64,000 nt of DNA, taken from Bacillota bacterium. GTDB lineage: Bacteria > Bacillota > Dethiobacteria > Dethiobacterales > Dethiobacteraceae. The stretch lies in NCBI GenBank assembly GCA_012521345.1, contig JAAYMN010000066.1:5376-69375 (forward strand). Reading direction: 5' to 3'. The notes beneath the pieces were generated by a model. That model was not told the DNA's origin. It searched no databases and saw only the letters and a list, made by a program, of their open reading frames with translations. This document shows positions 13,620 through 28,976 of this stretch, one piece after another (the first letter of the stretch is position 1; each line of letters starts with the position of its first letter). A program made the position numbers and the translations under genes.

Positions 13620-15326
13620 TTACATAACCACCCTCAATATTTCTTCAATCGACGTAATCCCCTGCTTTACTTTGTACAAACCGTCCTGGCGGAGTGTTAT
13701 CATGCCCTCTTTCACCGCCAGGTTTTTTATTTCCGCCGCCGACCGCTGCTCCAAAGCAAGCTTTTGAATACCCTCCGTCACAAGCAGCAGTTCAAAAATA
13801 CCTATCCTTCCGGCATAACCTGTGTTGCTGCAGCAGAGGCAGCCGTTTTTATGCGGGCGGAAGAGCCTGATCTTATCTTCACCCGGTTCCAGCGGAAAGT
13901 CGGCAATTATTTCCGCCATCTTGCGGGTGATAAAGTATTCTTCCTTGCACTGCGGACACAGTTTGCGCGCCAGCCTCTGGGCCAAAATTCCCACAACCGA
14001 AGAGACTGTCAGGTACGGCTCCACTCCCATTTCCGTCAGGCGGCTGATGGCTCCCGCCGCATCATTTGTATGCAGGGTGGCAAACACCAAGTGTCCTGTC
14101 AGCGCCGACTCAATGGCTATCTGGGCAGTTTCCCTGTCCCGGATTTCCCCAACCATAATAATATCAGGGTCGCTGCGCAGGATGGACCGCAAGCCGGAGG
14201 CAAAAGTCAGCCCGGCTTTGGGATTGATCTGGATCTGGCTAATACCTTCCATCCTGTATTCCACCGGGTCCTCAATTGTAACAACATTTTTGGCCACTCT
14301 GTCCACCGCCGCCAGGCTGGCATAGAGGGTGGTGCTTTTACCGCTGCCCGTTGGTCCCGTCACAGGGATAAAACCGTAAGGCAGGTTGATCAGCTTTTTA
14401 TATTTCTCAAGGATTTGCGGCGCTACCCCCAGTTCTTCCAATGTGATTGCCCGGTCGCTGCGTTCCAGCAGGCGGAGTGTGACCCGCTCGCCGTAGCTGG
14501 CAGGCAGGGTGGCAACCCGCACGTCTACTTTTCGCCCTTCCACCTTAATCGACATGCGCCCGTCCTGAGGAACCCGCCGCTCCGCAATATCCATATTGGC
14601 CATAATTTTAAAACGGGTAACCAGGGGGCCATGCATCCGCCGCGGCGGGTGCATCACATCATGGAGAACACCATCGATACGAAAACGTACCCTTAATGAT
14701 TTTTCATCAACTTCAAGATGGACATCGCTGGCCTTTGCATTCACTGCCTGTGCAAGGATAATGTTGGCCAGCTGCACGGCCGGTTTTTCCGCATCAAAAG
14801 ACGCTATGAGCGCTTCTTCCGCCGGTTCTTCCTCCGGGCTAAAATGGTCTCCTGTTATTCCTTCCACGCTGACACTGGCCTGGCTGTAATTGTTTATTAC
14901 CGCCTCCAGCTCGCTGTCAGTCACCACCACTGCCTGAATGTTGTGTCCCGTAAGCACCCGCAGGTCATCCAAGACAAAGATATCCAGCGGTTGCTCCATG
15001 GCAACCAGCAGACGCCCGTCTTCCGTAAAATCAATAGGCAGCGCCTTGTACCGCCTGGCAATTTCCGCCGGGATGGTCGCCATGGCCGCCTCTTTGAGCG
15101 GGTATTTTTTCAGGCTGATAAAGGGAACACCGGCGCGCCGGGCAACTGTTCTCGCAATATCCTCTTCCGTGCAGAACCCCAGCCGGACAAGAACACTGCC
15201 CAAAGACAGCCTGTCGTCCTCATGTTCTTTCAGATAGTGCATGGCTTCCGCCAGCTGCTCTTCTGTAACAATCACGTCCTGAACAAGCTGTCTCCCCAAA
15301 GAATCATTCAGACCGTATTGCCTCAT
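13620..15326 (-). CDS. pilB: Type IV pilus assembly ATPase PilB (GspE family)
   Basis: T2SSE N-terminal domain, Walker A GPTGSGKSTT, Asp/His boxes, and a tetracysteine motif (CPQC...CLCC). Confidence 0.95.
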   Translation of the reverse strand: MRQYGLNDSLGRQLVQDVIVTEEQLAEAMHYLKEHEDDRLSLGSVLVRLGFCTEEDIARTVARRAGVPFISLKKYPLKEAAMATIPAEIARRYKALPIDFTEDGRLLVAMEQPLDIFVLDDLRVLTGHNIQAVVVTDSELEAVINNYSQASVSVEGITGDHFSPEEEPAEEALIASFDAEKPAVQLANIILAQAVNAKASDVHLEVDEKSLRVRFRIDGVLHDVMHPPRRMHGPLVTRFKIMANMDIAERRVPQDGRMSIKVEGRKVDVRVATLPASYGERVTLRLLERSDRAITLEELGVAPQILEKYKKLINLPYGFIPVTGPTGSGKSTTLYASLAAVDRVAKNVVTIEDPVEYRMEGISQIQINPKAGLTFASGLRSILRSDPDIIMVGEIRDRETAQIAIESALTGHLVFATLHTNDAAGAISRLTEMGVEPYLTVSSVVGILAQRLARKLCPQCKEEYFITRKMAEIIADFPLEPGEDKIRLFRPHKNGCLCCSNTGYAGRIGIFELLLVTEGIQKLALEQRSAAEIKNLAVKEGMITLRQDGLYKVKQGITSIEEILRVVM

Positions 15327-15446
15327 ACTCGCAAACCCCCCGTTAATACCATCCGCTTCGGGCCTGAAAAAATCGCGACCGGACTTCGGCCTCGCCGCCG
15401 GTTTCCGGAAAGCAGCCTCCTCTTGCTGGAGCAGGGGAAGGTCGCT

Positions 15447-15968
15447 TTAAGGCTGGAAAAATGTGCTTGCTTTGATGCTGATAGCAAAATTTCCCTGCTG
15501 CTGGCGCTCATTGATGCGGAGTTCCTGCAGGCGGACGGCCCGCTCCGACAGCCTCAGGTAATCAAGAAAAGCCAAAAGACAGGAATACTTGCCTTCAAGC
15601 TGCAGCTCCAGCGGGATTTCTCTATACCCCTGCCGGTCAATATGCTCCCCGTAACTGATCTGCAGCAGAGTCATCCCTGATAGGTCCGCCCCGGCCTGCA
15701 GATCCAATAAAAGCCTTCCTTCCGCAGGCTCTTCCGGCAAAAGCCGGGTCAACATCTCCAGTTCTGCTGCGAGCTTCTCCCCGATCAGCCTTTGCCCTTG
15801 CAGCATGGCCAGTTTTCTTTCACTTGCCAAAAGCACTTGTTTTGCCGCAGCCAACGCCTCTTTTTGCCTGCGCCATTCCTGAAACTGCAGCCAACATAAA
15901 ACAGCTGCTGCCGCCAGGAGAAAGGACACAACAAGCAGTACCGGAGGAAGCTGTCTGCTTCTCATCAC
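15447..15968 (-). CDS. pilO: Type IV pilus biogenesis protein PilO
   Basis: Single TM helix, coiled coil, then a ferredoxin-like C-terminus (PLELQLEGKYSCLLAFLDYL). It lies downstream of pilN with a 4-nt overlap. Confidence 0.8.
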   Translation of the reverse strand: MMRSRQLPPVLLVVSFLLAAAAVLCWLQFQEWRRQKEALAAAKQVLLASERKLAMLQGQRLIGEKLAAELEMLTRLLPEEPAEGRLLLDLQAGADLSGMTLLQISYGEHIDRQGYREIPLELQLEGKYSCLLAFLDYLRLSERAVRLQELRINERQQQGNFAISIKASTFFQP

Positions 15969-16549
15969 TCTTCACTCCTCCCGGCCGGCTGAGGAAGTTC
16001 CCCGGTAAACACCTCTGCCTCAAGCTTAAAACGTACAAGCTCCCCGTCTGCACCCTGCTCCAACGAGGAAAAGTTGATCCGTACGCCTGAAATATTGGGG
16101 ACAGCTTCCAGTACACCCGCCCAGTCTGCTGCAGCGGAATGACTGTCTGCCAACCCGTGCAGTGTCAAAGTACCCGATGCACCGTCAAAAACAAGCTCCA
16201 GGTTTGTCAGCCGGACACTGGCAGGGATCTGTCCCCCCAGTTCGGCAAGCGTCTCCCGCCAGCCAAATTCAGCCCCCATGGCTATAGTCAACAAGTTTTT
16301 TTTCACGTCGAGACTTTTCTGCAGTTCCGAAAGCGGTTCGTACTGCTCAATGTCCCTTTCTACAAATGCACGCTGCTTCTGTATACCGGCAATTTCAGCC
16401 GCCGTTTGCTGCGCAAGACAATCCAACTTGCCGAATATACCTAACAGCAGCGCCGCCAGGAGAAGAACCGCCAGGGAGCACCACTTCTGCCGGGACTTCC
16501 GCCTTTGCTCAGCCGCAATTTCAGCAGGCAGGAGGTTGATTTTAATCAT
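15965..16549 (-). CDS. pilN: Type IV pilus biogenesis protein PilN
   Basis: MIKINLLPAEIAAEQRRK followed by a TM helix is the canonical PilN N-terminus. Confidence 0.88.
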   Translation of the reverse strand: MIKINLLPAEIAAEQRRKSRQKWCSLAVLLLAALLLGIFGKLDCLAQQTAAEIAGIQKQRAFVERDIEQYEPLSELQKSLDVKKNLLTIAMGAEFGWRETLAELGGQIPASVRLTNLELVFDGASGTLTLHGLADSHSAAADWAGVLEAVPNISGVRINFSSLEQGADGELVRFKLEAEVFTGELPQPAGRSEE

Positions 16550-16551
16550 AC

Positions 16552-17574
16552 CTACACCTCCAGCCCGCGCAGTGCCAACGCCAGGCTGACGGCAAATTCC
16601 GGCTGCGAAAGGTCAACACCCGGTTTTCCCTGTACACCGGCGGCAGCTTGAGGTACAGCCACTTCAGCCGGCAATTGCAGTTCATCCTGCAAGAGTGTCG
16701 CCAGCCCGTGGACACGCGCCCCCAGGCCGCTGAGAACCAGCCTGTCCACTTTCTTGAACCGGTCATGGCGTACATAATAACCGAGGGAGATTTTAATTTC
16801 ACGGGCGACTATTTTGCACCAGTGCCGGACGTACATATCCTCCCCCGTACTCTTTTCCACTGCAGCCGCCACAAACTTGTCGTGCCGCCGGTCTCCGCCT
16901 GCCGCCACTTCCAGGTCTTTCAGGCACTGCTTAAGCGACACAGGCAGCATGCGGGCAAAACGCGGCATACCGTTTACTGCTATGACGATACTGCTCAACC
17001 CCAAAGCCAGGTCAACCATTACAACAATCCCCTGCCTTTTTGCCGGCGGCAGGAGCCGGGGCAGTGCCAGCGGCGACGCATCAACCACCACAGGCGTCAG
17101 TCTGCCGTGCCAAAAGGCTTGCAGGCATGCCATGAGCTGCTCCCGCCTGGCAGCTACCAACAGCACTTCATTAAGCAGCTCATTGTCAGCGTATGCCTCA
17201 CCAACAACAGCAAAATCCAGCACCGTCTGTGAGACGGGAATGGGCAGATGCGCCCCGGCCTGCAGGCGCAGTGCTTTTTTTATTTTCTCCCCCGGCAGCC
17301 TGGGAAAAGTAATCATGCGTATTAACACGCTCCGGTTAAATATTCCCGGCACTACCCGGCGGCTGCCAAACCTTGCTTCCTGCCAAAGGCTTTGCAAGGC
17401 TTTGCCCACCGCAGCTGCATCATTGACAACCCCGTCAATTATTGCCTCTTCCGGAACCTGCACCCGACCGGCTCCCACAACAAACGGCTTGCCGCTTTCC
17501 CCTTTAATTTCCACCGCCCGGAGTACTCCCGTGTCAAGTTCCACACCGACAATTCTGCTACTTCGCAGTTCCAT
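16552..17574 (-). CDS. pilM: Type IV pilus assembly protein PilM (actin-like ATPase fold)
   Basis: IVGVELDTGVLRAVEIK...VVDASPLAL...VMVDLALGLSSIVI is PilM/FtsA-like. It lies directly upstream of pilN. Confidence 0.9.
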   Translation of the reverse strand: MELRSSRIVGVELDTGVLRAVEIKGESGKPFVVGAGRVQVPEEAIIDGVVNDAAAVGKALQSLWQEARFGSRRVVPGIFNRSVLIRMITFPRLPGEKIKKALRLQAGAHLPIPVSQTVLDFAVVGEAYADNELLNEVLLVAARREQLMACLQAFWHGRLTPVVVDASPLALPRLLPPAKRQGIVVMVDLALGLSSIVIAVNGMPRFARMLPVSLKQCLKDLEVAAGGDRRHDKFVAAAVEKSTGEDMYVRHWCKIVAREIKISLGYYVRHDRFKKVDRLVLSGLGARVHGLATLLQDELQLPAEVAVPQAAAGVQGKPGVDLSQPEFAVSLALALRGLEV

Positions 17575-17587
17575 AATCTACCCCCGG

Positions 17588-18286
17588 TCAGACTTTTAGT
17601 ATTTTCGCCAGCTGCTGCAAACTCTTGTGTAAAATTCTGGACACATGCCGCTGGCTGATTCCCAGCAATCTGCCTGCCTGCGACTGGGTTAAGTCCCTGT
17701 AAAACAATAAATAAACTACTTTTTTCTGCAGCCTGCTTAACCGGCTGAAAGCTTCCTCCAGCCAGATTTTTTCTTCAATGGGCAGCCGGAAACTTTCATA
17801 AGACAGTGACCGGATCTGCTTCAGATCTATTTCTTCCAAAGAAACCAGTCCGGCCCGCATGGTCTCGATAATACCTTCCTCTTTGACATTCAGGCAAAGG
17901 GCAATCTCCGCAAGCCCCGGCGGTTCCCCCTTTTCTTTCACCACCGCTTCCACATAAGCATCAATTTTATGCTGCAGGTCTTTTATCACACCGGGCCGGT
18001 AATAAGCCGCCTCCCTGCGGATATAATGCCTGATCTCGCCCATTATACAGTGTGACGCATACGTGGAAAATGCCACTCCCCTGCCGGCATCAAACCTGCG
18101 CACCGCCTTCAGCAGTCCTTCCCTTCCCGCCTGCATCACATCTTCCGCAGCGCCCCCGGTATAAAGGCGGGCAAAATGCCGCACCAGCCGATCGGCCGCA
18201 GCAACAAGCTCTGCCAGGTCATCGTTGCTAAAACTGCTGCTGTAGCGATAATACAGGCTGTCCAAATTTTCCCGCCGCACCGCCAT
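17588..18286 (-). CDS. Group-3 sigma-70 family sigma factor (SigB/F/G-FliA-like) embedded in the pilus operon
   Basis: Region 2 (GREGLLKAVRRFDAGRGVAFSTYASHCIMGEIRHYIRR), a region 3 segment, and a region 4 HTH (LTQSQAGRLLGISQRHVSRILHKSL). Confidence 0.88.
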   Translation of the reverse strand: MAVRRENLDSLYYRYSSSFSNDDLAELVAAADRLVRHFARLYTGGAAEDVMQAGREGLLKAVRRFDAGRGVAFSTYASHCIMGEIRHYIRREAAYYRPGVIKDLQHKIDAYVEAVVKEKGEPPGLAEIALCLNVKEEGIIETMRAGLVSLEEIDLKQIRSLSYESFRLPIEEKIWLEEAFSRLSRLQKKVVYLLFYRDLTQSQAGRLLGISQRHVSRILHKSLQQLAKILKV

Positions 18287-18300
18287 GCCAATCTGTCCCC

Positions 18301-19506
18301 TTATTGCTGGTAAGTGGAAATTACCAAGAACATGGGAAGATAAAGGGCAATGACCATCACTGCAATTATTCCGCCAACACCAATAATCATTACCGGCTCT
18401 ATCAGGCTTGTCAGCCCTTTTGACAAAGCCGCCGCTTCCTGCTCGTAAAAATCGGCTACCCGGTTTAACAACCCGGGCATATCCCCTGTTTCCTCCCCCA
18501 CCGAAATCATTAGCGTCACCATAGGCGGGAAAAGGCCGCTTTCCTTTAGAGGCCGGGCTATATTCTGACCTTCCCTGATACAGTCCATTGCATACCGTAC
18601 AGCTTCCTGTACCAGACTGCTTCCTGCAGCCGGTCCTGCCGTCTCTAACGCCTGCAGGACAGGTATTCCCCCGGCAAGCAGGGCGGACAGCGTTCTTGTA
18701 AAGCGGGCAATTACGGTTCTCTGAACAAGGGGACCCAAAACCGGGATTTTAAATTTCAGCCGGTCGTAAACATGCCGGCCGGGGCCGGCAATATATACCC
18801 GAAGTCCCGAGACAAGCAGTACCCAACCTAAAAAGTAAAAATACCAGTAAGCTCGCAAAGTATCACTGAGGGCAATAAGAAAGCTCGTCAGAAATGGAAG
18901 CTCATAGCCTTCCGGGTAAAACCCTACAAACACCGGTACGATAAAAAGCAGCATGGCAATCATCAGCAGGAAGGCAAATACCAGGACTAATACAGGGTAA
19001 AACATGGCGGCACGAATATTGTCTCGCAGCATTTTTTCGCTCTCCAGCTGCTGCGACAGCTTGACCAGAACCGCCTCCAGCGTGCCCCCCACTTCCCCCG
19101 CATTTACCAGTTCGACATATATCCCGGAGAAAATGTCCCGGTAAGCCCGCAGCGCCTGGGAGAGGCTCATACCGCCTTCCACGCTCCTTGCCACTGCAGG
19201 AAGGACCTTGCCTAAAACAGGTGTCGTCGCCTGCTCCCCCAGGATATAAAGGCATCTGGTGAGCGGAATACCCGCACTTAGCATTGCCGCCAGCTGCCGG
19301 CTGAAAAGTGCCAATTCCCCGATACTGACTTTCCTTTGCAACGGGAAAACTTGACCCCAGGCTGGAGTTTTAACTTCATTTACTTCTAGCGGGATGTAGC
19401 CAAGTTTAAACAAACGTGCAGCAGCAACCAAGTCGCTTTCCGCTTCCAGCTTTCCTGAGACCACCGCACCACCCTTATCAAGCGCCTGATATGCAAATAG
19501 CGGCAT
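18301..19506 (-). CDS. pilC: Type IV pilus inner-membrane platform protein PilC (GspF family)
   Basis: Duplicated T2SSF domains (FSRQLAAMLSAGIPL... / FTRTLSALLAGGIPV...) and three TM segments. Confidence 0.95.
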   Translation of the reverse strand: MPLFAYQALDKGGAVVSGKLEAESDLVAAARLFKLGYIPLEVNEVKTPAWGQVFPLQRKVSIGELALFSRQLAAMLSAGIPLTRCLYILGEQATTPVLGKVLPAVARSVEGGMSLSQALRAYRDIFSGIYVELVNAGEVGGTLEAVLVKLSQQLESEKMLRDNIRAAMFYPVLVLVFAFLLMIAMLLFIVPVFVGFYPEGYELPFLTSFLIALSDTLRAYWYFYFLGWVLLVSGLRVYIAGPGRHVYDRLKFKIPVLGPLVQRTVIARFTRTLSALLAGGIPVLQALETAGPAAGSSLVQEAVRYAMDCIREGQNIARPLKESGLFPPMVTLMISVGEETGDMPGLLNRVADFYEQEAAALSKGLTSLIEPVMIIGVGGIIAVMVIALYLPMFLVISTYQQ

Positions 19507-19698
19507 TAATGCCCTCCATTTCTATTTTTATTCTGTATATACAACATTTTCCATATATATTTCGCCAATAAAGCCGATTCCCCTTCTGGATATCATACAT
19601 ATAAATACATTTTATGTAATATTTTATCATTATGTCTAAATTTGCTTTTTACAGGTATAACAACATTAAAAAGTTGAGTTTAAAGGAGGAAGACAATA

Positions 19699-20082
19699 AT
19701 GGGCAGACTGATTCGCAGGGCACAAAAAAATCAACAAGGCTTCACCCTTGTTGAGCTGATGCTGGTCGTTATCATTATTGGTGTACTTGTGGCCATCGCA
19801 GTACCCATTTATGGGAATGTAACCCAACAGGCTGCAGACAAGGCCCATGAAGCCAACAAGAGAGTATTGCTAGGTGCAGCACAAATGTTGTATGCCGATA
19901 AGGGTCCGGCTGTTGCCGGAACATTTACGAAAGAAGAACCAAAAGAACTTGAAGATTATATCGAAGAATGGCCTGAACTCCCTGAACGTCGCAGCGAAGA
20001 TACCGACTGGACAGGTTATTCTGTAACCCTGAGCGAAGACGGCACTGTCAAAGTGATTAACGCAGGCGGCAGTGAAAATTAG
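19699..20082 (+). CDS. pilA: Type IV major pilin (PilA-like)
   Basis: Strong SD (AAAGGAGGAAG). Leader MGRLIRRAQKNQQG|FTLVELMLVVIIIGVLVAIAVPIY. The gene is 127 aa and divergent from pilC. Confidence 0.9.
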   Translation: MGRLIRRAQKNQQGFTLVELMLVVIIIGVLVAIAVPIYGNVTQQAADKAHEANKRVLLGAAQMLYADKGPAVAGTFTKEEPKELEDYIEEWPELPERRSEDTDWTGYSVTLSEDGTVKVINAGGSEN

Positions 20083-20306: not shown

Positions 20307-20333
20307 ACCGGCAATTAAGCCGGTCTGTTTTTT
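20307..20333 (+). terminator. Weak candidate plus-strand terminator (pilA side)
   Basis: accggc(20307-12)/gccggt(20319-24) stem followed by CTGTTTTTT. The stem is only 6 bp and lies 225 nt after the pilA stop. Confidence 0.3.
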
Positions 20334-21147
20334 AGTTTTCTTCCTTATCACGTATTCTTGTAAGCAGAAAGCCTGTTCCCAGGAAGAAAGCACCGAGTAT
20401 CAATAAGGCAAAATTATATCCTCCGGTTCTGGGCAGGTCGACCCCGGGAGTTTCCGGTGGCAACTCAAAATCAACGTCTTCTCCGTCATCTGCACCGGCA
20501 GGCTCTTCCCCGCCGTCTTCCCCATTGCCCGTATCAGGAGGTACGGGCGGTGAATCTATATCTCCGTCTTCGCCATTATCTTCACCGGGAGGTTCAGGCG
20601 GGTTTTCGCCATTATCGGGAGACACAGGCGGCGAATCATCACCATCAGGCCAGGCGGCAATAAACTTCCAGGCCAGGTCAAGGGATTTCCCCTGATACTC
20701 ATTGCCTGCATCCTCTTTTAGGCTTACGGTAAAAGCAAGGTTTTCCGAAGTACCTGCCTGGATTTCTCCAATCTTGATACTGCTGAGGCCACTGATGGGC
20801 CCGCTGTAAAAAGTCTGATTGCTTCCCTGTTGCGAGATGCTGATATTGACCCCGTGGAAAAGCAGGTCGTCTCCTGCTTTCTTTTCCACTTCAATAAACA
20901 GCATAAACTCCCTTTGGCCGGTGTTGGAAATTCTCAGCGGCGAGGTTTCCGCTTTGCCTGGATACAGGTTGTTAATATTGAAGAACTGTTCTTCTTCCGG
21001 CACTACCTGAAGCCCCTTTTCTGTCCCGATAATCTCCAGGGAAGAGGCAAAGGAATGCTCGGCAAGCATCAGGCCGGCGGAAACAACAATGGATAAAAGC
21101 AATAAATATGTAATTGTCCTGCGCAAGCACACGGAAAATGTTTTCAC
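20332..21147 (-). CDS. Secreted TasA/camelysin-like domain protein with Pro/Asp/Gly-rich stalk and LPXTG cell-wall sorting signal
   Basis: Signal peptide ...AEHSFA|SS. NLYPGKAETSPLRISNTGQREF and ENLAFTVSLKEDAGNEYQGKSLDLAWKF match the camelysin/TasA pattern. The C-terminus is LPRTGG, a hydrophobic helix, then RIRDKEEN. Confidence 0.75.
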   Translation of the reverse strand: MKTFSVCLRRTITYLLLLSIVVSAGLMLAEHSFASSLEIIGTEKGLQVVPEEEQFFNINNLYPGKAETSPLRISNTGQREFMLFIEVEKKAGDDLLFHGVNISISQQGSNQTFYSGPISGLSSIKIGEIQAGTSENLAFTVSLKEDAGNEYQGKSLDLAWKFIAAWPDGDDSPPVSPDNGENPPEPPGEDNGEDGDIDSPPVPPDTGNGEDGGEEPAGADDGEDVDFELPPETPGVDLPRTGGYNFALLILGAFFLGTGFLLTRIRDKEEN

Positions 21148-22275: not shown

Positions 22276-23457
22276 CTAGTGTTCATTGCCGGCAAGAAAT
22301 TGATCTGTACTGCGCCACCCAATAGTAATCCAGCCTGCCCGCGGAATCACATGTATCACTTTCCCCACCACCTGCTCAGCAAGCACAGGCTCGCTGTCTA
22401 TTCTTTCATTGGCATCACCTTTGGTAACGAACATGGGAAGTCCTCTTTCATCTTTCCTGATGTCCACCACACGGTGGGCAATTCTGGCTCCCTCCATCCG
22501 AAAAAGCAGTATGTCGTTCAATTCCACTTCATCAGGTTTAATGCGCTTGATGATGGCGATATCGCCCTGCTCTATAGCCGGTGACATGCTGCCTGAGACA
22601 ACAGCCGTGGGGAAAATGCTAAACACGCCAATTGCAAACCATACGATAAGAACGGATAGAACACTTGCCACAACCCATCCCATGGGACTTTCGCTGTCTT
22701 TTTTGCGGACCCGCAGCACCTCTGATTGGTGCAACTGATAAATCAGCACCAGGCAAAAAACCGTGACAAAAGTACTAACCATGGCATGTGCAATCCAGTT
22801 TAAATCCGGTAAAACCGGAGAAAACCAGTGAAAAGCCGCAAGCACCCCCCGGTAAATGATTGCCGGCAGCGGCCCTGCTAAAGAAGCAAGGTATGATGCA
22901 AGAATATTTTCCGATAACACGGGAATAACGGTATTGCCAACAAACTGGGCCGCTTCCTGAAACGTTTTCAACATAACCAAGCGCCTGAGGGAAAAGCCAA
23001 ATAAAGAATAAATGATACCGGTAAGAACAATCCCTATTACTTGGCGCTTGGCAAATAAAGAATTCATCAACCACGAACGGCTAAGCTCCATGCCCGCCAG
23101 CATAGAGCAAAGATAAAAGAGATTTATTATGATGCCGGTAAAACTGTGATCATACGGGCTGCGCCCCAAGCCTGTCATGAAACCAACAGCAAAAACGGCC
23201 ACTACAGTCGCTATCCCGCAAATCAGCCCTGCCCAACAAAACATTTTCCGGTGGCGAGCTTTCACCATAAGCCTGACCTGGTCCAGCCGCAACCTGATGA
23301 TAAGAGCAAGCAAACCCCAGAAAACGGCAGGCAAAATATAATTTCCCCACAGCCCGGTTAAAAACCGCCCGGAAACAAGATTGCTTGCAAGCAGCATGCC
23401 TATAAAAAAAGCAGGATTCCCATACCCTGCCAGGTACGGGCACCGGTAAGCTTGCAC
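22276..23457 (-). CDS. Fusion protein: polytopic membrane domain (about 280 aa, unknown family) plus C-terminal SipW/ER-type S26 signal peptidase I
   Basis: The C-terminus reads VVSGSMSPAIEQGDIAIIKR...RIAHRVVDI...FVTKGDANERID (Ser/His SipW-type motifs). The N-terminal part has about 7-8 hydrophobic helices. GTG start preceded by GGAGGTG. Confidence 0.8.
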   Translation of the reverse strand: MQAYRCPYLAGYGNPAFFIGMLLASNLVSGRFLTGLWGNYILPAVFWGLLALIIRLRLDQVRLMVKARHRKMFCWAGLICGIATVVAVFAVGFMTGLGRSPYDHSFTGIIINLFYLCSMLAGMELSRSWLMNSLFAKRQVIGIVLTGIIYSLFGFSLRRLVMLKTFQEAAQFVGNTVIPVLSENILASYLASLAGPLPAIIYRGVLAAFHWFSPVLPDLNWIAHAMVSTFVTVFCLVLIYQLHQSEVLRVRKKDSESPMGWVVASVLSVLIVWFAIGVFSIFPTAVVSGSMSPAIEQGDIAIIKRIKPDEVELNDILLFRMEGARIAHRVVDIRKDERGLPMFVTKGDANERIDSEPVLAEQVVGKVIHVIPRAGWITIGWRSTDQFLAGNEH

Positions 23458-23484: not shown

Positions 23485-24018
23485 CTACTCTGCTTCCGCT
23501 TCTATTGCATCTGCTCCATTGTTACTGCTTGTATCCCCTGCTACCTGTTCTACTTCCGTCTCCATGACGACCTCGTATTCATCGACTGCTTCTTTTCCAT
23601 TGCCGTCAATTTCTTCTACGCTCTGCTCACTCTCTATTGCTTTATTTTCTTCAATGATTTGTCCGTTCTCATCTTCTTTTTTTTGATCTGTCGTTCTTTC
23701 ATATTCTTCCTCAGCATTTTCTCCTTCTGCTCCTTCTTTTTCTTCTTCTTTAACACTGTTGTCTGCTTCTTCTATATCAACGGCATAGCCGACCCCCGGT
23801 TCAGTATCATTTTCAACAGTGCCCGTTTCCGGCCCGGTCTCTGTTTCCGGAACTGCCCATTCAGTGGTTGTAATGCTTCCCTGCACCCGAAGCGAGTCCT
23901 GCCAGGAAGACAAGCCCACGGGAAGCAAAAAAAGAGCAATAACAAGCCAAAACAATACAAAGGGAGCTTTTTTCAGCAAAATTCTCACCTGACCAGTGTT
24001 TTTGTTTTGCGTTCTCAC
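23485..24018 (-). CDS. Secreted protein with SipW-cognate-like N-terminus and long acidic disordered tail
   Basis: KKAPFVLFWLVIALFLLPVGLSS|WQDSLRVQGSITT is followed by about 120 aa rich in E/D. The start is uncertain (GTG 24018 or an internal TTG). Confidence 0.6.
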   Translation of the reverse strand: MRTQNKNTGQVRILLKKAPFVLFWLVIALFLLPVGLSSWQDSLRVQGSITTTEWAVPETETGPETGTVENDTEPGVGYAVDIEEADNSVKEEEKEGAEGENAEEEYERTTDQKKEDENGQIIEENKAIESEQSVEEIDGNGKEAVDEYEVVMETEVEQVAGDTSSNNGADAIEAEAE

Positions 24019-24077: not shown

Positions 24078-24803
24078 TTAAACATTAGGATTAGGTTCTA
24101 CATAATTCCATTGTACGAATTCAAATTCAATTTCAAATTCAACGGTTTGATTTTGCAGACTTACACCATTAAGTGTATTAGGTGCTTCAGGGTTTATCCG
24201 GAAATAAAGTGTGTTCTCGCCGCCTTCTTCATCATCAGCGCCGAACCTGATAGTCCACCCCGGGTACAGTACAACATTTACCAAAGCATTGTACAATGTA
24301 TTTTCAAAATCAGAAAGATTTTCCCAGTTATTATTTATTGGAAGCAAAATTTCTCTGAGAACATTATTATTATCATAAAGCATTATATCAGCTTTGCCTT
24401 CTAAATAGTTGTATAGCTGACCAGGTCCGCCAGTATGCTTGATATTAACAGCCTTTACTTTTGACGGCACAGTACCGGTATTCTCAATCCGGAGAGTATA
24501 TTTTGCCACCGCGCCTGGATACATGTTGTACATTCCAATTGGGAGAGCATTGCCGATAAAAGTTTCGTGATCGGGATACCACGATGTAGGGCCATCGAAA
24601 TTGTCAATAGAAATGTAATGCCACTCAGGTTGATATTTAAAAGGATATGATGAAGCATGCTTGGAATATATCCAAGTGTGTTCAAGCTTACCGGTCTGAA
24701 CTGTTCCATCTAGCATCATAGTATTTGCCCAATATGCATACGCTCCGCCCATTAAACCGAACAACAATACCAATGCCAAAGCAAGAAATTTTACCTTTTT
24801 CAC
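24078..24803 (-). CDS. Secreted TasA/camelysin-superfamily-like protein (candidate major fibre subunit)
   Basis: Signal peptide MKKVKFLALALVLLFGLMGGAYA|YWANTMMLDGTVQTGKLE. MYPGAVAKYTLRIENTGTVPSKV resembles the TasA-family L.PGD...V.N.G motif. Confidence 0.7.
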   Translation of the reverse strand: MKKVKFLALALVLLFGLMGGAYAYWANTMMLDGTVQTGKLEHTWIYSKHASSYPFKYQPEWHYISIDNFDGPTSWYPDHETFIGNALPIGMYNMYPGAVAKYTLRIENTGTVPSKVKAVNIKHTGGPGQLYNYLEGKADIMLYDNNNVLREILLPINNNWENLSDFENTLYNALVNVVLYPGWTIRFGADDEEGGENTLYFRINPEAPNTLNGVSLQNQTVEFEIEFEFVQWNYVEPNPNV

Positions 24804-25045: not shown

Positions 25046-25564
25046 TTACAATTGCACAAAATCCAGACTAAAGCTAAAACTGCACCGACCGGGCTCAGCC
25101 ACATCCTGGATTGTGATTTGAATACAGCCGGTGGCTGTTTCTCCGCTTTTCAGAACTTCCGGTGTCAGTGTATTTCCTAATACTATGGCGCCGGGCTCAA
25201 GCAGGATTTCAGGTTCAGGAAATAAGGACTGCAGCCTTAAAGGCAAACTGCCCCGGTTGACAATCTCGTAGGCGAACAGGGCATTGTACCCGGGATAAGC
25301 ATCTTCAATGAGAATTGAAATTGTTTTTTCGTCCCAATCGATCCGGAAAGTTGGGTTTTTCAGGCCATCGGGTGTTTTGCTGTGGTTATCAAGCCAGCAC
25401 CTGGTAACTACAGGGTCAATCTTCCCGGTGGATGCGGTAACATTGATTGCGAGTTGGTCCCGCCATACAGCGTAACCCAACCCTAGTACACTGAATACCG
25501 CTGTAAGGGTGAAGCAAAAAAGCCACCCCGGCAAGATTAGCTTTTTCGCGCCTTTATTTCTCAC
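25046..25564 (-). CDS. Secreted TasA/camelysin-superfamily-like protein (paralog)
   Basis: The GTG at 25564 is preceded by GGAGAG. The N-terminus is MRNKGAKKLILPGWLFCFTLTAVFSVLGLGYA|VWRDQLAINVTASTGKID, and YPGYNALFAYEIVNRGSLPLRL follows. The track ORF starts at TTG 25579. Confidence 0.7.
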   Translation of the reverse strand: MRNKGAKKLILPGWLFCFTLTAVFSVLGLGYAVWRDQLAINVTASTGKIDPVVTRCWLDNHSKTPDGLKNPTFRIDWDEKTISILIEDAYPGYNALFAYEIVNRGSLPLRLQSLFPEPEILLEPGAIVLGNTLTPEVLKSGETATGCIQITIQDVAEPGRCSFSFSLDFVQL

Positions 25565-25607
25565 AAGCAGCTCTCCCAAAAAACAGAATTATTATTATTA
25601 AAGAGCT

Positions 25608-26081: not shown

Positions 26082-27284
26082 TCAAGATTTGTGATACTGT
26101 GGAAATGTTACTGCATAAAGTGAAAGAGGCGCCATCGGCTGAAGTTTGGTGTATAAAACAACATCAGGATGAATTTTTTTAAAATCGCTGCAGATCCGGT
26201 TTAAGACTTTTTCTCCCTGTTCAAAGCTTAGGCCGGGAAGCAGAAGCAAAAACTGCGTATCGTTCCACTTTGTCACCACATCACCCTTGCGCAGACTTGC
26301 AAGCAAGAAGCAAAGCAGGCTGTCGGCTGTCTTGTTGATGTCCGGAACTTTTTGATTGACAGCCGCCAATGTCAGCAGTGCCAAAAACACCGGATTGCCT
26401 GATCTTTCCAGCCTTCTGCGCTCCAACCTGTAAAACTCACCAAAGATGTCGGGTTCACAAAAGTAGGCTTTATCAAATACATGTTCTGCCAGCCGGTATT
26501 GAATTGACAATAAATCAGCTTTAACATTGTCATATTCCGCCTTTAATCTTTGGTAAACATTTTTCATGGCCAGAGACGGTTTAATGCCCAATTCACGGTA
26601 AAAAAGCGATGTTATGTAGCCATAATGGGATTTGGCTTCTTTAATTTTACCCAATGCCAAGAGGGCATCAATAAAGTAGATATGGAAATCCTCTTCAAAT
26701 AACTCGAGAGCAAATACTGATTCGCAGATTTTTATGATTGCATGGTATCTTTGCTTGTTGTGCAACAGCTTTAACAACTCCAGGGCGCCTTGCAGATAGA
26801 TATGGCGATAATAGCTTCTTGCCGGATGCGCCCATTCGTCATACGCACACTCGGGGAGGTAGTCGCCCTTATACAAGGCAATGGCTTCTAAGTAAACTTC
26901 GATGGCTTTTTCGGGGTCACTTGCGGCTAAATCCTGTCCCTGCTTGCAGAGCATCTCAAATTCATCGGCGTCAAGCCAATAATCCCCGGCAAGGCTCCAC
27001 CTGTAGCAACCCTGTGAGTAAACTATATTATCACTGTACTTTGCATTGTTTTCATGAAGCAGCTTGCGCAAGCGGTAGATAGCAGTCCGAAGCGCCTTTT
27101 TGGGGTCGGAGTAATTTTTTTCCGGCCATAGCGTATCCATTATCACTTCAGGGAGAATGTTTTTGTCGCGATTTGTTAAAAGATATTTGAACAGTTTCCA
27201 CAGCTTGTACGACTTGTTGGCATGTTCGGAGACAATTCTATCGCCACATTTAACATAAAATTTACCAAAAGTATGAATTTCCAA
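26082..27284 (-). CDS. SARP-family transcriptional regulator: winged-helix DNA-binding domain, BTAD, and a degenerate GGDEF-like C-terminal domain
   Basis: The N-terminus (FGKFYVKCGDRIV...LFKYLLTNRDKNILPEVIMDTLWPE...ALRTAIYRLRKLL) is OmpR/SARP-type wHTH. A TPR-like BTAD follows (YKGDYLPE...WAHPARSYY). The C-terminus RKGDVVTKWNDTQFLLLLPG aligns to R..D...R.GGDEF..LLP with the GGDEF motif lost. Confidence 0.75.
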   Translation of the reverse strand: MEIHTFGKFYVKCGDRIVSEHANKSYKLWKLFKYLLTNRDKNILPEVIMDTLWPEKNYSDPKKALRTAIYRLRKLLHENNAKYSDNIVYSQGCYRWSLAGDYWLDADEFEMLCKQGQDLAASDPEKAIEVYLEAIALYKGDYLPECAYDEWAHPARSYYRHIYLQGALELLKLLHNKQRYHAIIKICESVFALELFEEDFHIYFIDALLALGKIKEAKSHYGYITSLFYRELGIKPSLAMKNVYQRLKAEYDNVKADLLSIQYRLAEHVFDKAYFCEPDIFGEFYRLERRRLERSGNPVFLALLTLAAVNQKVPDINKTADSLLCFLLASLRKGDVVTKWNDTQFLLLLPGLSFEQGEKVLNRICSDFKKIHPDVVLYTKLQPMAPLSLYAVTFPQYHKS

Positions 27285-27613: not shown

Positions 27614-28546
27614 TTATCTTATTAAATTTACTGCCGTCACACCGTAATCCGCAGCGTTATCGTCTATTTGGCCGGTAACGATGGTGTCGACGAACCAGCC
27701 CCGTATAATGCTTTGGTTGCCCTGTTTGGGTGGATGGTTTTTGTTGAGGAAGAAGGCGGCAAAACCTACTACCTCCACTTCCTGCCTCCCACCTCCGGTC
27801 GGTTGCTTTATGACCGGAATATAGACCAGGAGGGGGCAGCCGGGTTTGAAATTGGCAAAAGTACAGTTATCCTGGCAGCGGTTGACACGCTCCAGAAAAC
27901 CTGCCCTTGTCGGGCCGGACATGTTGCCCGGCTCCGTTTCCAGGATATCCCCTACTTTTATTTGTCCCTGGTAGCCCCTGCTCAAGTTTTTCTTGTAATT
28001 CGCGGCACCCTTGCCGCCCAAAGCGAGGGCGCCAAAGTTACCCGGTCCAAGTTCACCCGCAGGAAACGATTTCAGATGATATTCCTGCCCCTTGACAAAA
28101 TCCTGTTCCACAATCGTCAGTGGAACGACACCGGTAAGCGCCGAAACTGTTCCCGTCAGGGCGGTGGCGGTAGCGGAGACATCTCCCGTAAAAAAGCCCA
28201 GCACACGGGCAAAGGAATACTGTACATTATCCCTGACCGTGACAGTGACCGCCCGCCCGCCGTGTGACAGGCCGGCTTCGACCACTTCCGGCTCCACGCC
28301 GTTTAAGACGGCATATTCCACTGCCTTCTCCAGGGCCTGGCTGCCTGCCCCCGGATTAAGGACCAGTTCCTGGGCGCCTGCCAGCGCAGCCGCGTCGGCG
28401 GCAGTTGCCAGCGCTCTTCTTTTTGCCGCCAGAAGCCCGTAATCAGTCACCATGGCCGCCGAACCAAGCAAGGCCACCATGGCCAGCATAACAATGACAA
28501 GGGAACTGCCTTTTTCTTCCCTTACCAATCTTGTCAAAAACCTCAT
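27614..28546 (-). CDS. TadG-like (Tad/Flp pilus-associated) pseudopilin-like protein
   Basis: N-terminus REEKGSSLVIVMLAMVALLGSAAMVTDYGLLAAKRRALATAADAAALAGA is the TadE/G-like N-terminal motif (pfam13400-type). Confidence 0.75.
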   Translation of the reverse strand: MRFLTRLVREEKGSSLVIVMLAMVALLGSAAMVTDYGLLAAKRRALATAADAAALAGAQELVLNPGAGSQALEKAVEYAVLNGVEPEVVEAGLSHGGRAVTVTVRDNVQYSFARVLGFFTGDVSATATALTGTVSALTGVVPLTIVEQDFVKGQEYHLKSFPAGELGPGNFGALALGGKGAANYKKNLSRGYQGQIKVGDILETEPGNMSGPTRAGFLERVNRCQDNCTFANFKPGCPLLVYIPVIKQPTGGGRQEVEVVGFAAFFLNKNHPPKQGNQSIIRGWFVDTIVTGQIDDNAADYGVTAVNLIR

Positions 28547-28547
28547 C

Positions 28548-28976
28548 TTAGGTCGCCTCCTGAACGTATTCGACCCTCATGGTCGCATCCGCCTCGTGCC
28601 GGAAGCTTTCTCCGAGAAATAAATCAAAAAAAGGCACAATGACATCTGTTCCCGCCTCAACTGTTACAGTCACAGGCTGCCCGAAGCTTCTTGCCCCCTG
28701 CGGCTCAATGTGTACCGAAACTGCCTCCAGCAGTGGAGAGTTGTGCAGCATGTTTTGCACCTTGACTGATATTTCCGCATCCGTTGCTCCCACGGCAGCC
28801 AGCCTTGCCCCTTCCCGTGCAGCGCTGGAAACGGCGATTTCCCCGCTTAAAATGATGCCGAACTGCACCACTCCAAGCAGCAAAAGCAGGACCAGCGGCA
28901 AGACAAGCGCCGTTTCCACTAGTGCCTGTCCGTTTTCCCGACCGGTTTTGGCCAACATGGCAGCCAGCACAGGCAA
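28548..28976 (-). CDS. TadE-like protein
   Basis: GQALVETALVLPLVLLLLLGVVQFGIIL...AAREGAR is the TadE motif. The likely true start is GTG 28970, 7 nt after AGGAGG. Confidence 0.8.
   Translation of the reverse strand: MPVLAAMLAKTGRENGQALVETALVLPLVLLLLLGVVQFGIILSGEIAVSSAAREGARLAAVGATDAEISVKVQNMLHNSPLLEAVSVHIEPQGARSFGQPVTVTVEAGTDVIVPFFDLFLGESFRHEADATMRVEYVQEAT

Follow-up and report, generated by a model that had tools for sequence, protein, structure and literature searches.

What is a large polytopic membrane domain doing in the same chain as a signal peptidase? The question is raised by a gene located on a 64,000-nucleotide stretch (the window) of contig JAAYMN010000066.1 (GenBank assembly GCA_012521345.1), from a Bacillota bacterium of the Dethiobacteraceae. 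The gene codes for a protein of 393 amino acids (aa) in which a bundle of transmembrane (TM) helices (residues 1-257, the N-domain) precedes a SipW-type signal peptidase, and it lies in what its gene content identifies as an AbpX-type (TasA-superfamily) fibre operon. We propose that the N-domain is probably a non-catalytic, CPBP-like (CAAX-protease-like) scaffold or gate built into its own peptidase, i.e. the fused counterpart of the two-protein pairs SpbR-SpsB and SpdC-SagB. We give this reading a probability of about 0.55.

The fusion had been described in a first-pass annotation of the window, which also raised the possibility that the long frame is an artefact, with a real start at about residue 270, near the last TM helix. 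We weighed this as either two neighbouring genes merged into one or translation that begins around residue 250. Several features could be read in this way, namely a rare split form of the gene in other genomes (see below), a public gene call that starts at Met21, and a hairpin followed by a T run in codons 9-16. The gene is, however, a single unbroken open reading frame (ORF) without any stop codon, a single ORF is found at 83 loci from independent genomes, and conservation is continuous across the junction between the two domains. What sets the split form apart is a single in-frame stop, and its two modules still lie side by side. These comparative data refute the artefact, for which they leave a negligible probability. 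The start codon itself is ambiguous by 20 codons, the identical protein of the public call being 373 aa long. The GTG start is preceded at 13 nt by GGAGG, and no Shine-Dalgarno sequence is present before Met21; the first TM helix, which is kept by homologues, aligns with residues located 5' of Met21 and is restored by the GTG start. The terminator-like hairpin and its run of seven T (23410-23431, minus strand) lie between the two candidate starts. They may be a coincidence, the T run coding for Phe-Phe of TM1, or may be tied to the ambiguity of the start site.

The peptidase module was examined with family models. NCBIfam TIGR02228 (sigpep_I_arch) matches residues 264-377 with 79.7 bits, above its curated cut-off of 51.85 (E = 2e-22), and Pfam Peptidase_S26 (PF10502) matches the C-terminal part with 25.1 bits for a cut-off of 22.9. 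The Bacillus SipW equivalog NF046067 scores 60.2 bits, far under its cut-off of 190, and the window peptidase is therefore a relative of Bacillus subtilis SipW and not its orthologue. The catalytic signature is complete (SGS290MSP, H328R, GD348ANERID354), with a Ser nucleophile, a His and not a Lys as general base, and Asp348 and Asp354. These four residues (Ser290, His328, Asp348 and Asp354) are present in all family members that include the S26 domain. An AlphaFold model of the full-length protein reached a mean predicted local distance difference test (pLDDT) of 87 and a predicted TM-score (pTM) of 0.74, and its best Foldseek match is human SEC11A (7p2p_A, E = 2.4e-5). A short amphipathic helix (residues 375-390) ends the chain. 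Judged from its signature, the segment of residues 258-393 (136 aa) is an intact archaeal/ER-type (SipW/Sec11-like) Ser/His signal peptidase I, predicted to lie on the outer face of the membrane. The C-terminal catalytic module of the first-pass annotation is thus present; it starts near residue 258 when its membrane anchor is included, and not at residue 290.

The fusion is widespread. A word-indexed search with the full-length protein gave 224 significant homologues; the best 120 of these are mostly 380-420 aa long with 78-98% query coverage, apart from a few short fragments (67-70%), and every named one among them is called "signal peptidase I". Public copies carry only this annotation, and the N-domain merits a family model of its own. 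When a profile of the N-domain was compared with 1.84 billion representative proteins, at least 1,388 clusters were matched at E ≤ 1e-3, of which 955 also pass E ≤ 1e-10; among the 150 clusters listed, a length of 380-440 aa prevails, which is enough to hold the peptidase as well. A scan of species-representative genomes, seeded with seven closer sequences, gave 80 loci and is biased to Bacillota and Chloroflexota; the archaeal members reported in a preprint of January 2026 (bioRxiv 10.64898/2026.01.04.697558) are not among them. The 80 loci come from Syntrophomonadaceae, Peptococcaceae, Moorellales, Heliobacterium, Desulfitobacterium, Pelotomaculum, Sedimentibacter, Tissierellia, Lutispora, Holtiella and Dehalococcoidia/Chloroflexota. 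With our own hidden Markov models (HMMs), the N-domain and the S26 domain were found in one ORF at 83 of 84 loci; the remaining locus is truncated by a contig end. The fusion is real, evolutionarily fixed far beyond chance, and tied to the AbpX-type operon.

A comparison of fused with split versions had also been suggested by the first-pass annotation. Most short N-domain matches turned out to be fragments or frameshifted calls. One genuine split was found, in two loci from different samples (L084, 4001-5212; L085, 1197-2408): an in-frame TAA in the cytoplasmic linker ends the N-domain gene and, 18 nt further, an ATG opens a mini signal peptidase of 133 aa with its own TM anchor. No DUF5305 gene is found downstream in L084 or L085. 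This split suggests that the two modules are able to exist as separate proteins. At another locus (L086, 2309-3100) an N-domain gene (P0196, 263 aa) stands on a short contig whose other 520 nt hold no detectable S26 domain; this may reflect decay of the locus or a scaffold encoded on its own. Some family members, among them P0188, P0187, P0185 and P0148, carry extra modules. In some relatives three LysM modules, or else SdrD_B/SpaA or CBM96 modules (all extracellular, wall- or carbohydrate-binding), follow the peptidase domain. P0148 has a K/R-rich insertion of about 170 aa in the TM8-TM9 linker, and several other members have cytoplasmic N-terminal extensions of 100-130 aa. The cytoplasmic linker thus tolerates both the insertion of P0148 and the in-frame stop of L084/L085.

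The topology of the protein was analyzed on 333 non-identical family members, which were also used for all conservation counts given below. Seven to eight hydrophobic helices had been noted at first; the AlphaFold model has eight in the N-domain (residues 7-28, 36-57, 67-95, 106-133, 139-154, 166-194, 196-212 and 221-248), to which the peptidase anchor is added, i.e. an 8+1 arrangement. The average net charge is +3.8 for the TM2-TM3 loop and +2.2 for the TM4-TM5 loop, the TM8-TM9 linker holds 4.3 Lys and Arg, and the outer loops have a net charge close to zero or negative. From this positive-inside pattern we predict a nine-TM protein with a cytoplasmic N terminus and its C terminus out, and therefore an S26 catalytic domain located outside, which is the orientation that the first-pass annotation had proposed to verify. 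The extracellular modules found behind the peptidase domain in some relatives agree with this prediction.

No family could be assigned to the N-domain by sequence, as had been stated from the start. Neither Pfam nor NCBIfam has a family that matches it, be it in the window protein or in the 23-41 homologues scanned, with a limit as loose as E ≤ 1. In particular Pfam PF02517, the CPBP family, matches none of 41 full-length members at E ≤ 1 and none of ten long relatives, and no CPBP model of NCBIfam matches any of 23 N-domains. YqhR, cytochrome b561, exosortase XrtS and PspM appeared in these scans with chance-level matches only and were discarded.

The fold of the N-domain is more informative. 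Foldseek with the full-length model gave matches of the peptidase domain only, which masked the N-domain, and residues 1-258 were re-modelled alone from a 23-sequence alignment (pLDDT 87.3, pTM 0.85). The best match of this model is chain A of the S. aureus SagB-SpdC complex (6u0o_A; E = 7.6e-3, probability 1.00, TM-score 0.56/0.58 over 262 columns), followed by the CAAX protease Rce1 (4cad_C; probability 1.00, TM-score 0.50/0.51). Chain A would be SpdC and not SagB, given its length of 248 residues and the all-helical alignment of 262 columns. SpdC is an eight-TM protein of a structure similar to Rce1 (bioRxiv 10.1101/2020.05.21.109470). The next match is APH-1 of gamma-secretase (TM-score 0.34-0.37), itself regarded as CPBP-derived according to Pei et al. 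2011, as cited in PMC12260438; all other targets are at or below 0.30. The modelled N-domain therefore has the eight-TM, Rce1-like fold of the CPBP family. As no HMM matches and the sequence motifs of the family are altered or absent (see below), we call it a CPBP-fold domain whose motifs are degenerate, and we do not count it in PF02517.

The same comparison bears on the possibility that the N-domain is a transporter or channel, for instance for Ca2+, which is bound by AbpX fibres, or for subunit export. The domain is polytopic with conserved polar residues within the membrane (N112, E124), and ZIP transporters appear among the weak Foldseek matches. Their probability is however 0.2 or less and their TM-score 0.14-0.17, on which a ZIP-like identity was rejected, and transporter folds as a whole stay at or below 0.27. 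Moreover the domain shows no internal repeat symmetry and no match to a transporter family, and the subunits carry standard Sec-type signal peptides. We consider this possibility very improbable.

To bring out remote sequence similarity, a CPBP profile was built from a canonical PF02517 gene found at locus L061 and extended to 56 CPBP sequences. With small alignments, hhalign gave a probability of 1.4% for the N-domain against this profile. With the 333 N-domains against the 56 CPBP sequences the probability rose to 18% in local and 26% in global mode (pairwise E of 1.3e-3 and 1.4e-4, score 30.6), still under accepted thresholds; a reversed-template control gave a score of 14.8, an E of 0.26 and a probability of 0.2%. 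Both runs found the same register, in which G-M-E124--L-S-R127 is placed on (V)EELVFR of CPBP motif 1, while TM5 falls on the helix that bears motif 2.

The conservation of the N-domain is centred on two regions. The first is the Glu/Arg pair of TM4: all sequences but one have E124 (332/333) and all have R127 (333/333), with N112 (98%) and Y202 (96%) nearly as constant; P179, G195, P214 and P217 are at or near 99%. The pair is a candidate remnant of motif 1 (EExxxR), which it reaches only with a 2-residue gap. Motifs 2 (FxxxH) and 3 (HxxxN/D) are absent from the N-domain, and no His is conserved. The motif-2 position aligns to a variable L/F/I. His210 is E, H or Q and His224 is K, Q or T across the family, and an intact CPBP protease, first suspected from the strings "ELSR", "AAFHWF" and "IAHAMV", was dropped for this reason. 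By its spacing, Y202 (P198-x3-Y202) may be the counterpart of the motif-3 His. Apart from the Glu/Arg pair, the strongest conservation of the N-domain is found in the outer TM3-TM4 and TM7-TM8 loops, both predicted on the same (outer) side of the membrane as the peptidase. In the former (GFGxSPY, residues 96-102), G98 is conserved at 97%, S100 at 93%, P101 at 98% and Y102 at 86%. In the latter (SPxLPxxW, residues 213-221), P214 is present in 332/333 sequences, P217 in 331/333, L216 in 97% and W221 in 95%.

Could the N-domain be an active, non-canonical intramembrane protease, which uses Glu124 together with Arg127, Asn112 or Tyr202? The protein would then hold two proteases: the outer S26 site would remove the signal peptide, and a CPBP-like site in the inner leaflet would degrade the retained signal peptide or make a second cut in a subunit or in its anchor. 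E124 and R127 are conserved like Ser290 and His328, E124 is located on TM4 toward the cytoplasmic end, where the catalytic Glu of Rce1 motif 1 sits and with which hhalign pairs it, and some bacterial CPBP proteins are genuine proteases, e.g. MroQ, according to work cited in PMC12260438. On the other hand no His, Asp, Ser or Cys is conserved in the N-domain and motifs 2 and 3 are missing, whereas catalysis by Rce1 depends on a His and an Asn besides the Glu (Manolaridis 2013, as cited in PMC12260438). SpbR, which is non-catalytic, also retains the motif-1 Glu and Arg, and their mutation is without functional effect (PMC12260438). With motif 1 altered, motifs 2 and 3 absent and no HMM match, canonical catalysis is unlikely; as far as the alignment tells, no residue besides E124, R127 and N112 would be able to support it, which matches SpbR. 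We hold an active protease to be improbable. A bolder version, to which we give equally little credence, would take the Glu124/Arg127 site (with Asn112 and Tyr202) of the inner leaflet for an intramembrane hydrolase or receptor of a mechanistically new class, and the chain would make two cuts in sequence: the donor strand would be freed outside by the S26 site, and the inner site would capture the basic MKKxK n-region and clear the signal peptide, so that a self-contained "signal peptidase plus signal-peptide peptidase" machine would time fibre polymerisation.

A non-catalytic scaffold or gate has precedents. In S. aureus, the degenerate CAAX-protease-like polytopic protein SpbR is bound to SpsB, a signal peptidase of type I, through the TM helix and extracellular domain of the latter, and inhibits cleavage by SpsB; its residual motifs are HELYMR, FIYLD and QIVAI, and the residual His, Glu and Arg can be mutated without functional effect (PMC12260438). 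In the N-domain, likewise, a Glu/Arg pair that would stem from motif 1 remains, and the His motifs are lost. It differs in that SpbR is still recognized by HMMs as a CAAX-protease homologue, that SpbR and SpsB are two separate proteins, and that SpsB is a bacterial Ser/Lys peptidase of the P type whereas the window enzyme is of the Ser/His SipW type. SpdC is a second degenerate CAAX-protease homologue, whose putative catalytic residue is dispensable; its TM3 and TM3-TM4 loop scaffold and orient the single-pass glucosaminidase SagB, the loop touching the catalytic domain of SagB (bioRxiv 10.1101/2020.05.21.109470). The SpdC-SagB complex (6u0o) is thus an 8+1 TM assembly as well, of which chain A is the best structural match of the N-domain. 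In that complex the partner is a glucosaminidase and not a peptidase, the association is non-covalent, and no sequence similarity is detectable. Finally the domain shares with Rce1 and PF02517 proteins (4cad) the eight-TM fold and, close to the cytoplasmic side of TM4, one acidic residue paired with a basic one; it differs by ExxR in place of EExxxR, by the absence of FxxxH and HxxxN/D, and by the lack of an HMM match. It is from the 8+1 arrangement in one chain, the Glu/Arg that would stem from motif 1 kept with the His motifs lost, and the conservation of the outer loops, including TM3-TM4, that we infer a scaffold or gate, in which the N-domain would contact the peptidase and would not itself be catalytic.

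Several observations weigh against this reading. The homology to CPBP proteins is seen at the level of the fold only: PF02517 is matched by 0/41 members, the hhalign probability is just 1.4-26%, hhalign gives no signal at all when the C-terminal halves are compared alone, and a sequence-profile search of the PDB with the N-domain has no match at E ≤ 10. The spacing of the Glu/Arg pair (ExxR) differs from that of EExxxR. The anchor helix TM9 is modelled at moderate confidence only (pLDDT 64-73), so that the interface between scaffold and peptidase is putative. E124 and R127 are as invariant as the catalytic residues of the peptidase, a degree of conservation beyond what a passive scaffold would call for, which gives room for catalysis or for the binding of a specific ligand. 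Lastly, the effect of the N-domain on the peptidase may be activating, specificity-conferring or, as with SpbR, inhibitory.

The genomic context indicates on which substrates the peptidase would act. The fused gene belongs to a tightly spaced minus-strand cluster made of a regulator, fibre subunits, a donor-strand-only protein, the fused peptidase, a DUF5305 protein and a subunit with an LPRTG sequence (Table 1). The neighbours had been called TasA-like, and a profile made from the window subunits and their counterparts at two other loci agrees with this: it matches AbpX (9sj2, E = 3.7e-11) and TasA (8aur, 9e-4). The order subunits, fused peptidase, DUF5305 recurs across loci, and DUF5305 is encoded downstream of the fused peptidase, directly or past one or two subunit genes, in 70/83 comparison loci as well as in the window. 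DUF5305 has been proposed as an accessory subunit of signal peptidases, and is fused to them in other lineages (bioRxiv 10.64898/2026.01.04.697558; PMC11821415). The region around the cleavage site follows one pattern in 183 subunit genes, in which MKKxK and a hydrophobic core precede G-x-G-Y-A|x-W-[ST]-[DE]-x-L-x-I-x-x-T-V-x-T-G. P1 is Ala in 155/182 cases and P2 is Tyr in 128/182; on the mature side, P2' is Trp in 166/180 and P4' is Asp or Glu in 124/182. An aromatic residue at P2' is also known for substrates of the SipW/TafD type (PMC10269814). By analogy with the genetics of TafD and SipW (PMC11821415), and from synteny, the fused protein would be the dedicated signal peptidase of the AbpX-type operon and would cleave the neighbouring subunits.

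The recurrence of DUF5305 lends itself to another explanation, according to which the N-domain would be a membrane platform peculiar to this family, similar to CPBP proteins through convergence only, which anchors the base of the growing fibre or docks DUF5305 and the LPXTG subunit, and does not act on the peptidase. It fits the CPBP homology being non-significant at the sequence level, the fusions of DUF5305 to signal peptidases in other lineages, and the conserved outer loops, which could bind partners other than the peptidase. Convergence is however at odds with the structural search, in which only PDB structures of the CPBP fold reach a TM-score of 0.5 or more, aligned over the whole domain, and with the invariant Glu/Arg pair, which is on the same helix number and at the same membrane depth as motif 1. 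In addition the N-domain is obligately fused to the peptidase and not to DUF5305 or to a subunit, which argues that the peptidase is its partner. We regard such a platform as unlikely, if less so than an active protease. The first-pass annotation had expected the fusion to couple subunit processing to another membrane function, such as export, polymerisation or a docking platform. The docking platform fits the CPBP fold and the SpbR-SpsB and SpdC-SagB precedents; export does not agree with the transporter TM-scores given above, and nothing points to polymerisation as a function of the N-domain itself.

For the scaffold or gate that we favour, the following course of events can be proposed. Pre-subunits with their MKKxK start, hydrophobic core and G-x-G-Y-A|x-W-x-D/E site would be exported by Sec and stay tethered through the signal peptide. 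The scaffold would position the Ser290/His328 site, and the two conserved outer loops would shape or gate the access to the aromatic-flanked cleavage site. Cleavage would produce the mature N-terminus, the donor strand needed for polymerisation; in AbpX this strand starts at residue 2 of the mature protein (bioRxiv 10.64898/2026.01.04.697558). As cleavage makes the donor strand, gating cleavage would gate polymerisation. Restricted in place and time, and probably with the help of DUF5305, cleavage could couple the release of subunits to the growth of the fibre at the cell surface.

Which parts of this system are already known? Less novelty remains to the polytopic peptidase than was implied at first: one sentence of the January 2026 preprint mentions, without identity or function, that the AbpX-associated signal peptidase I "possess[es] ten transmembrane helices" (bioRxiv 10.64898/2026.01.04.697558). 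The enzymes share AbpX-like subunits, DUF5305, an LPXTG anchor subunit and regulators as context, an occurrence in Bacillota and Chloroflexota, and a TIGR02228-type peptidase with many additional TM helices. Matched by description, they very probably form one family, although ten helices are given there against 8+1 and a short C-terminal amphipathic helix here. Like SipW in the tapA-sipW-tasA operon of B. subtilis and TafD of Haloarcula hispanica, the window protein is a dedicated ER/archaeal-type peptidase beside TasA-superfamily subunits. Experiments show TafD to be needed for subunit processing, and it too has a DUF5305 protein as its companion (PMC11821415). SipW has however about 190 aa and one or two TM helices, TafD has four and an additional C-terminal domain, and neither carries an N-terminal eight-TM bundle. 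The eukaryotic signal peptidase complex (SEC11 with SPCS1-3; 7p2p) contains the best match of the catalytic domain, SEC11A, and non-catalytic membrane partners that shape the choice of substrates; there the accessory subunits are separate polypeptides, with a fold unrelated to the N-domain. Our literature search found no description of a CPBP or CAAX-protease domain fused to a signal peptidase. The type of peptidase, the type of operon and the principle of the CPBP scaffold are thus each known; their covalent combination and the CPBP-like identity of the additional domain appear to be new.

The donor-strand N-terminus drives polymerisation, and the cleavage of the signal peptide is therefore the arming step of each subunit of the TasA/AbpX type. 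A peptidase joined to a CAAX-protease-like scaffold suggests that this step is controlled in space or time in a large family, of the at least 1,388 clusters counted above. If so, the use of degenerate CAAX-protease homologues as membrane scaffolds or regulators of extracytoplasmic hydrolases would extend to covalent fusions, in which the link itself is ready-made evidence of who partners whom. E124, R127, N112 and Y202, together with the GFGxSPY and SPxLPxxW loops, are the targets to be mutated.

Table 1. Position of the fused gene, its domains and motifs, and the other genes of the fibre operon in the window.
Feature	Coordinates	Strand	Remarks
Whole gene, fusion of a CPBP-fold domain and a SipW-type signal peptidase	22276..23457	minus	GTG start; alternative ATG 23397 = Met21
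N-terminal 8-TM domain, CPBP/Rce1/SpdC-like fold (modelled), N terminus cytoplasmic (predicted)	22687..23457	minus	residues 1-257
Extracytoplasmic TM3-TM4 loop GLGRSPYDHS, one strand of a two-stranded mini-sheet	23143..23172	minus	consensus GFGKSPYxHS; AlphaFold strand 97-99
E124-L-S-R127 on TM4 near its cytoplasmic end, candidate remnant of CPBP motif 1 EExxxR	23077..23088	minus	conservation; hhalign places GME--LSR opposite VEELVFR
Extracytoplasmic TM7-TM8 loop SPVLPDLNW, second strand of the mini-sheet	22795..22821	minus	AlphaFold strand 215-217
Basic cytoplasmic linker RVRKKDSES, from scaffold domain to peptidase anchor	22687..22713	minus	mean K+R 4.3 per sequence (333 sequences)
TM9, membrane anchor of the peptidase, N-in/C-out	22612..22686	minus	helix residues 258-276; pLDDT 64-73
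S26 catalytic domain, extracytoplasmic (predicted)	22276..22611	minus	Ser290 22588-22590; His328 22474-22476; Asp348 22414-22416; Asp354 22396-22398
DUF5305 protein, 369 aa	21152..22261	minus	14 nt downstream of the fused gene; Pfam PF17231 1.3e-26
TasA/camelysin-like subunit with C-terminal LPRTG sortase signal (cell-wall anchor)	20332..21147	minus	Peptidase_M73 5.8e-5; LPRTG at residue 237; matches subunit profile
Donor-strand-only secreted acidic protein: signal peptide, SWQDSLRVQGSITT, acidic tail	23485..24018	minus	27 nt upstream of the fused gene
AbpX-like fibre subunit, 241 aa, predicted cleavage GGAYA|YW	24078..24803	minus	best PDB sequence match AbpX 9sj2, from its mature residue 2
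AbpX-like fibre subunit, 177 aa, predicted cleavage LGYA|VWRD	25046..25579	minus	subunit profile
SARP/BTAD transcriptional activator with GGDEF-like C-terminal region, upstream of the operon	26082..27284	minus	Pfam BTAD 2.1e-16 and Trans_reg_C

Some other features of the locus were observed. The donor-strand-only gene codes for a signal peptide of the AbpX type and a donor strand (..GGYG|xW[QRE]xxLxIxG..), followed only by an acidic or Pro-rich tail of low complexity, without the jelly-roll core. A gene of this type is located immediately upstream of the fused peptidase in about two dozen other loci of the 84, e.g. L053 (5673-5879), L041 (5631-5867), L028 (1971-2228), L004 (5490-5924) and L060 (5424-5918); its product could be a fibre cap, an initiator or a strand plug. 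The last subunit of the cluster ends with LPRTG, a hydrophobic stretch and a basic tail, which form a sortase signal, and no ORF with the sortase motif TLxTC was found in the 64-kb window. A GC-rich palindromic, terminator-like hairpin (20307-20324) is present between this gene and a convergent prepilin gene. The regulator upstream of the operon has a weak similarity to the diguanylate cyclase SiaD in residues 288-373 (E = 6.7e-6, far below the cut-off), and this region may be a degenerate GGDEF sensor domain. The locus that provided the canonical CPBP/CAAX-protease gene (L061, 3966-4712; PF02517, with EELVFR, FAILH and HTIIN) also has a fused peptidase, and the CPBP gene lies there directly upstream of AbpX-type subunit genes. 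Finally, the fibre operon is flanked on both sides (13620-20082 and 27614-28976) by type IV pilus genes, the set comprising PilB/T2SSE, PilO, PilN, PilM, a sigma-70-family factor, PilC/T2SSF, a divergent prepilin and TadE/TadG-like genes. Type IV pilus genes are linked to the secretion of a biofilm matrix protein in C. perfringens (PMC11580942), and the adjacency of pilus genes and fibre operon in the window may be functional.

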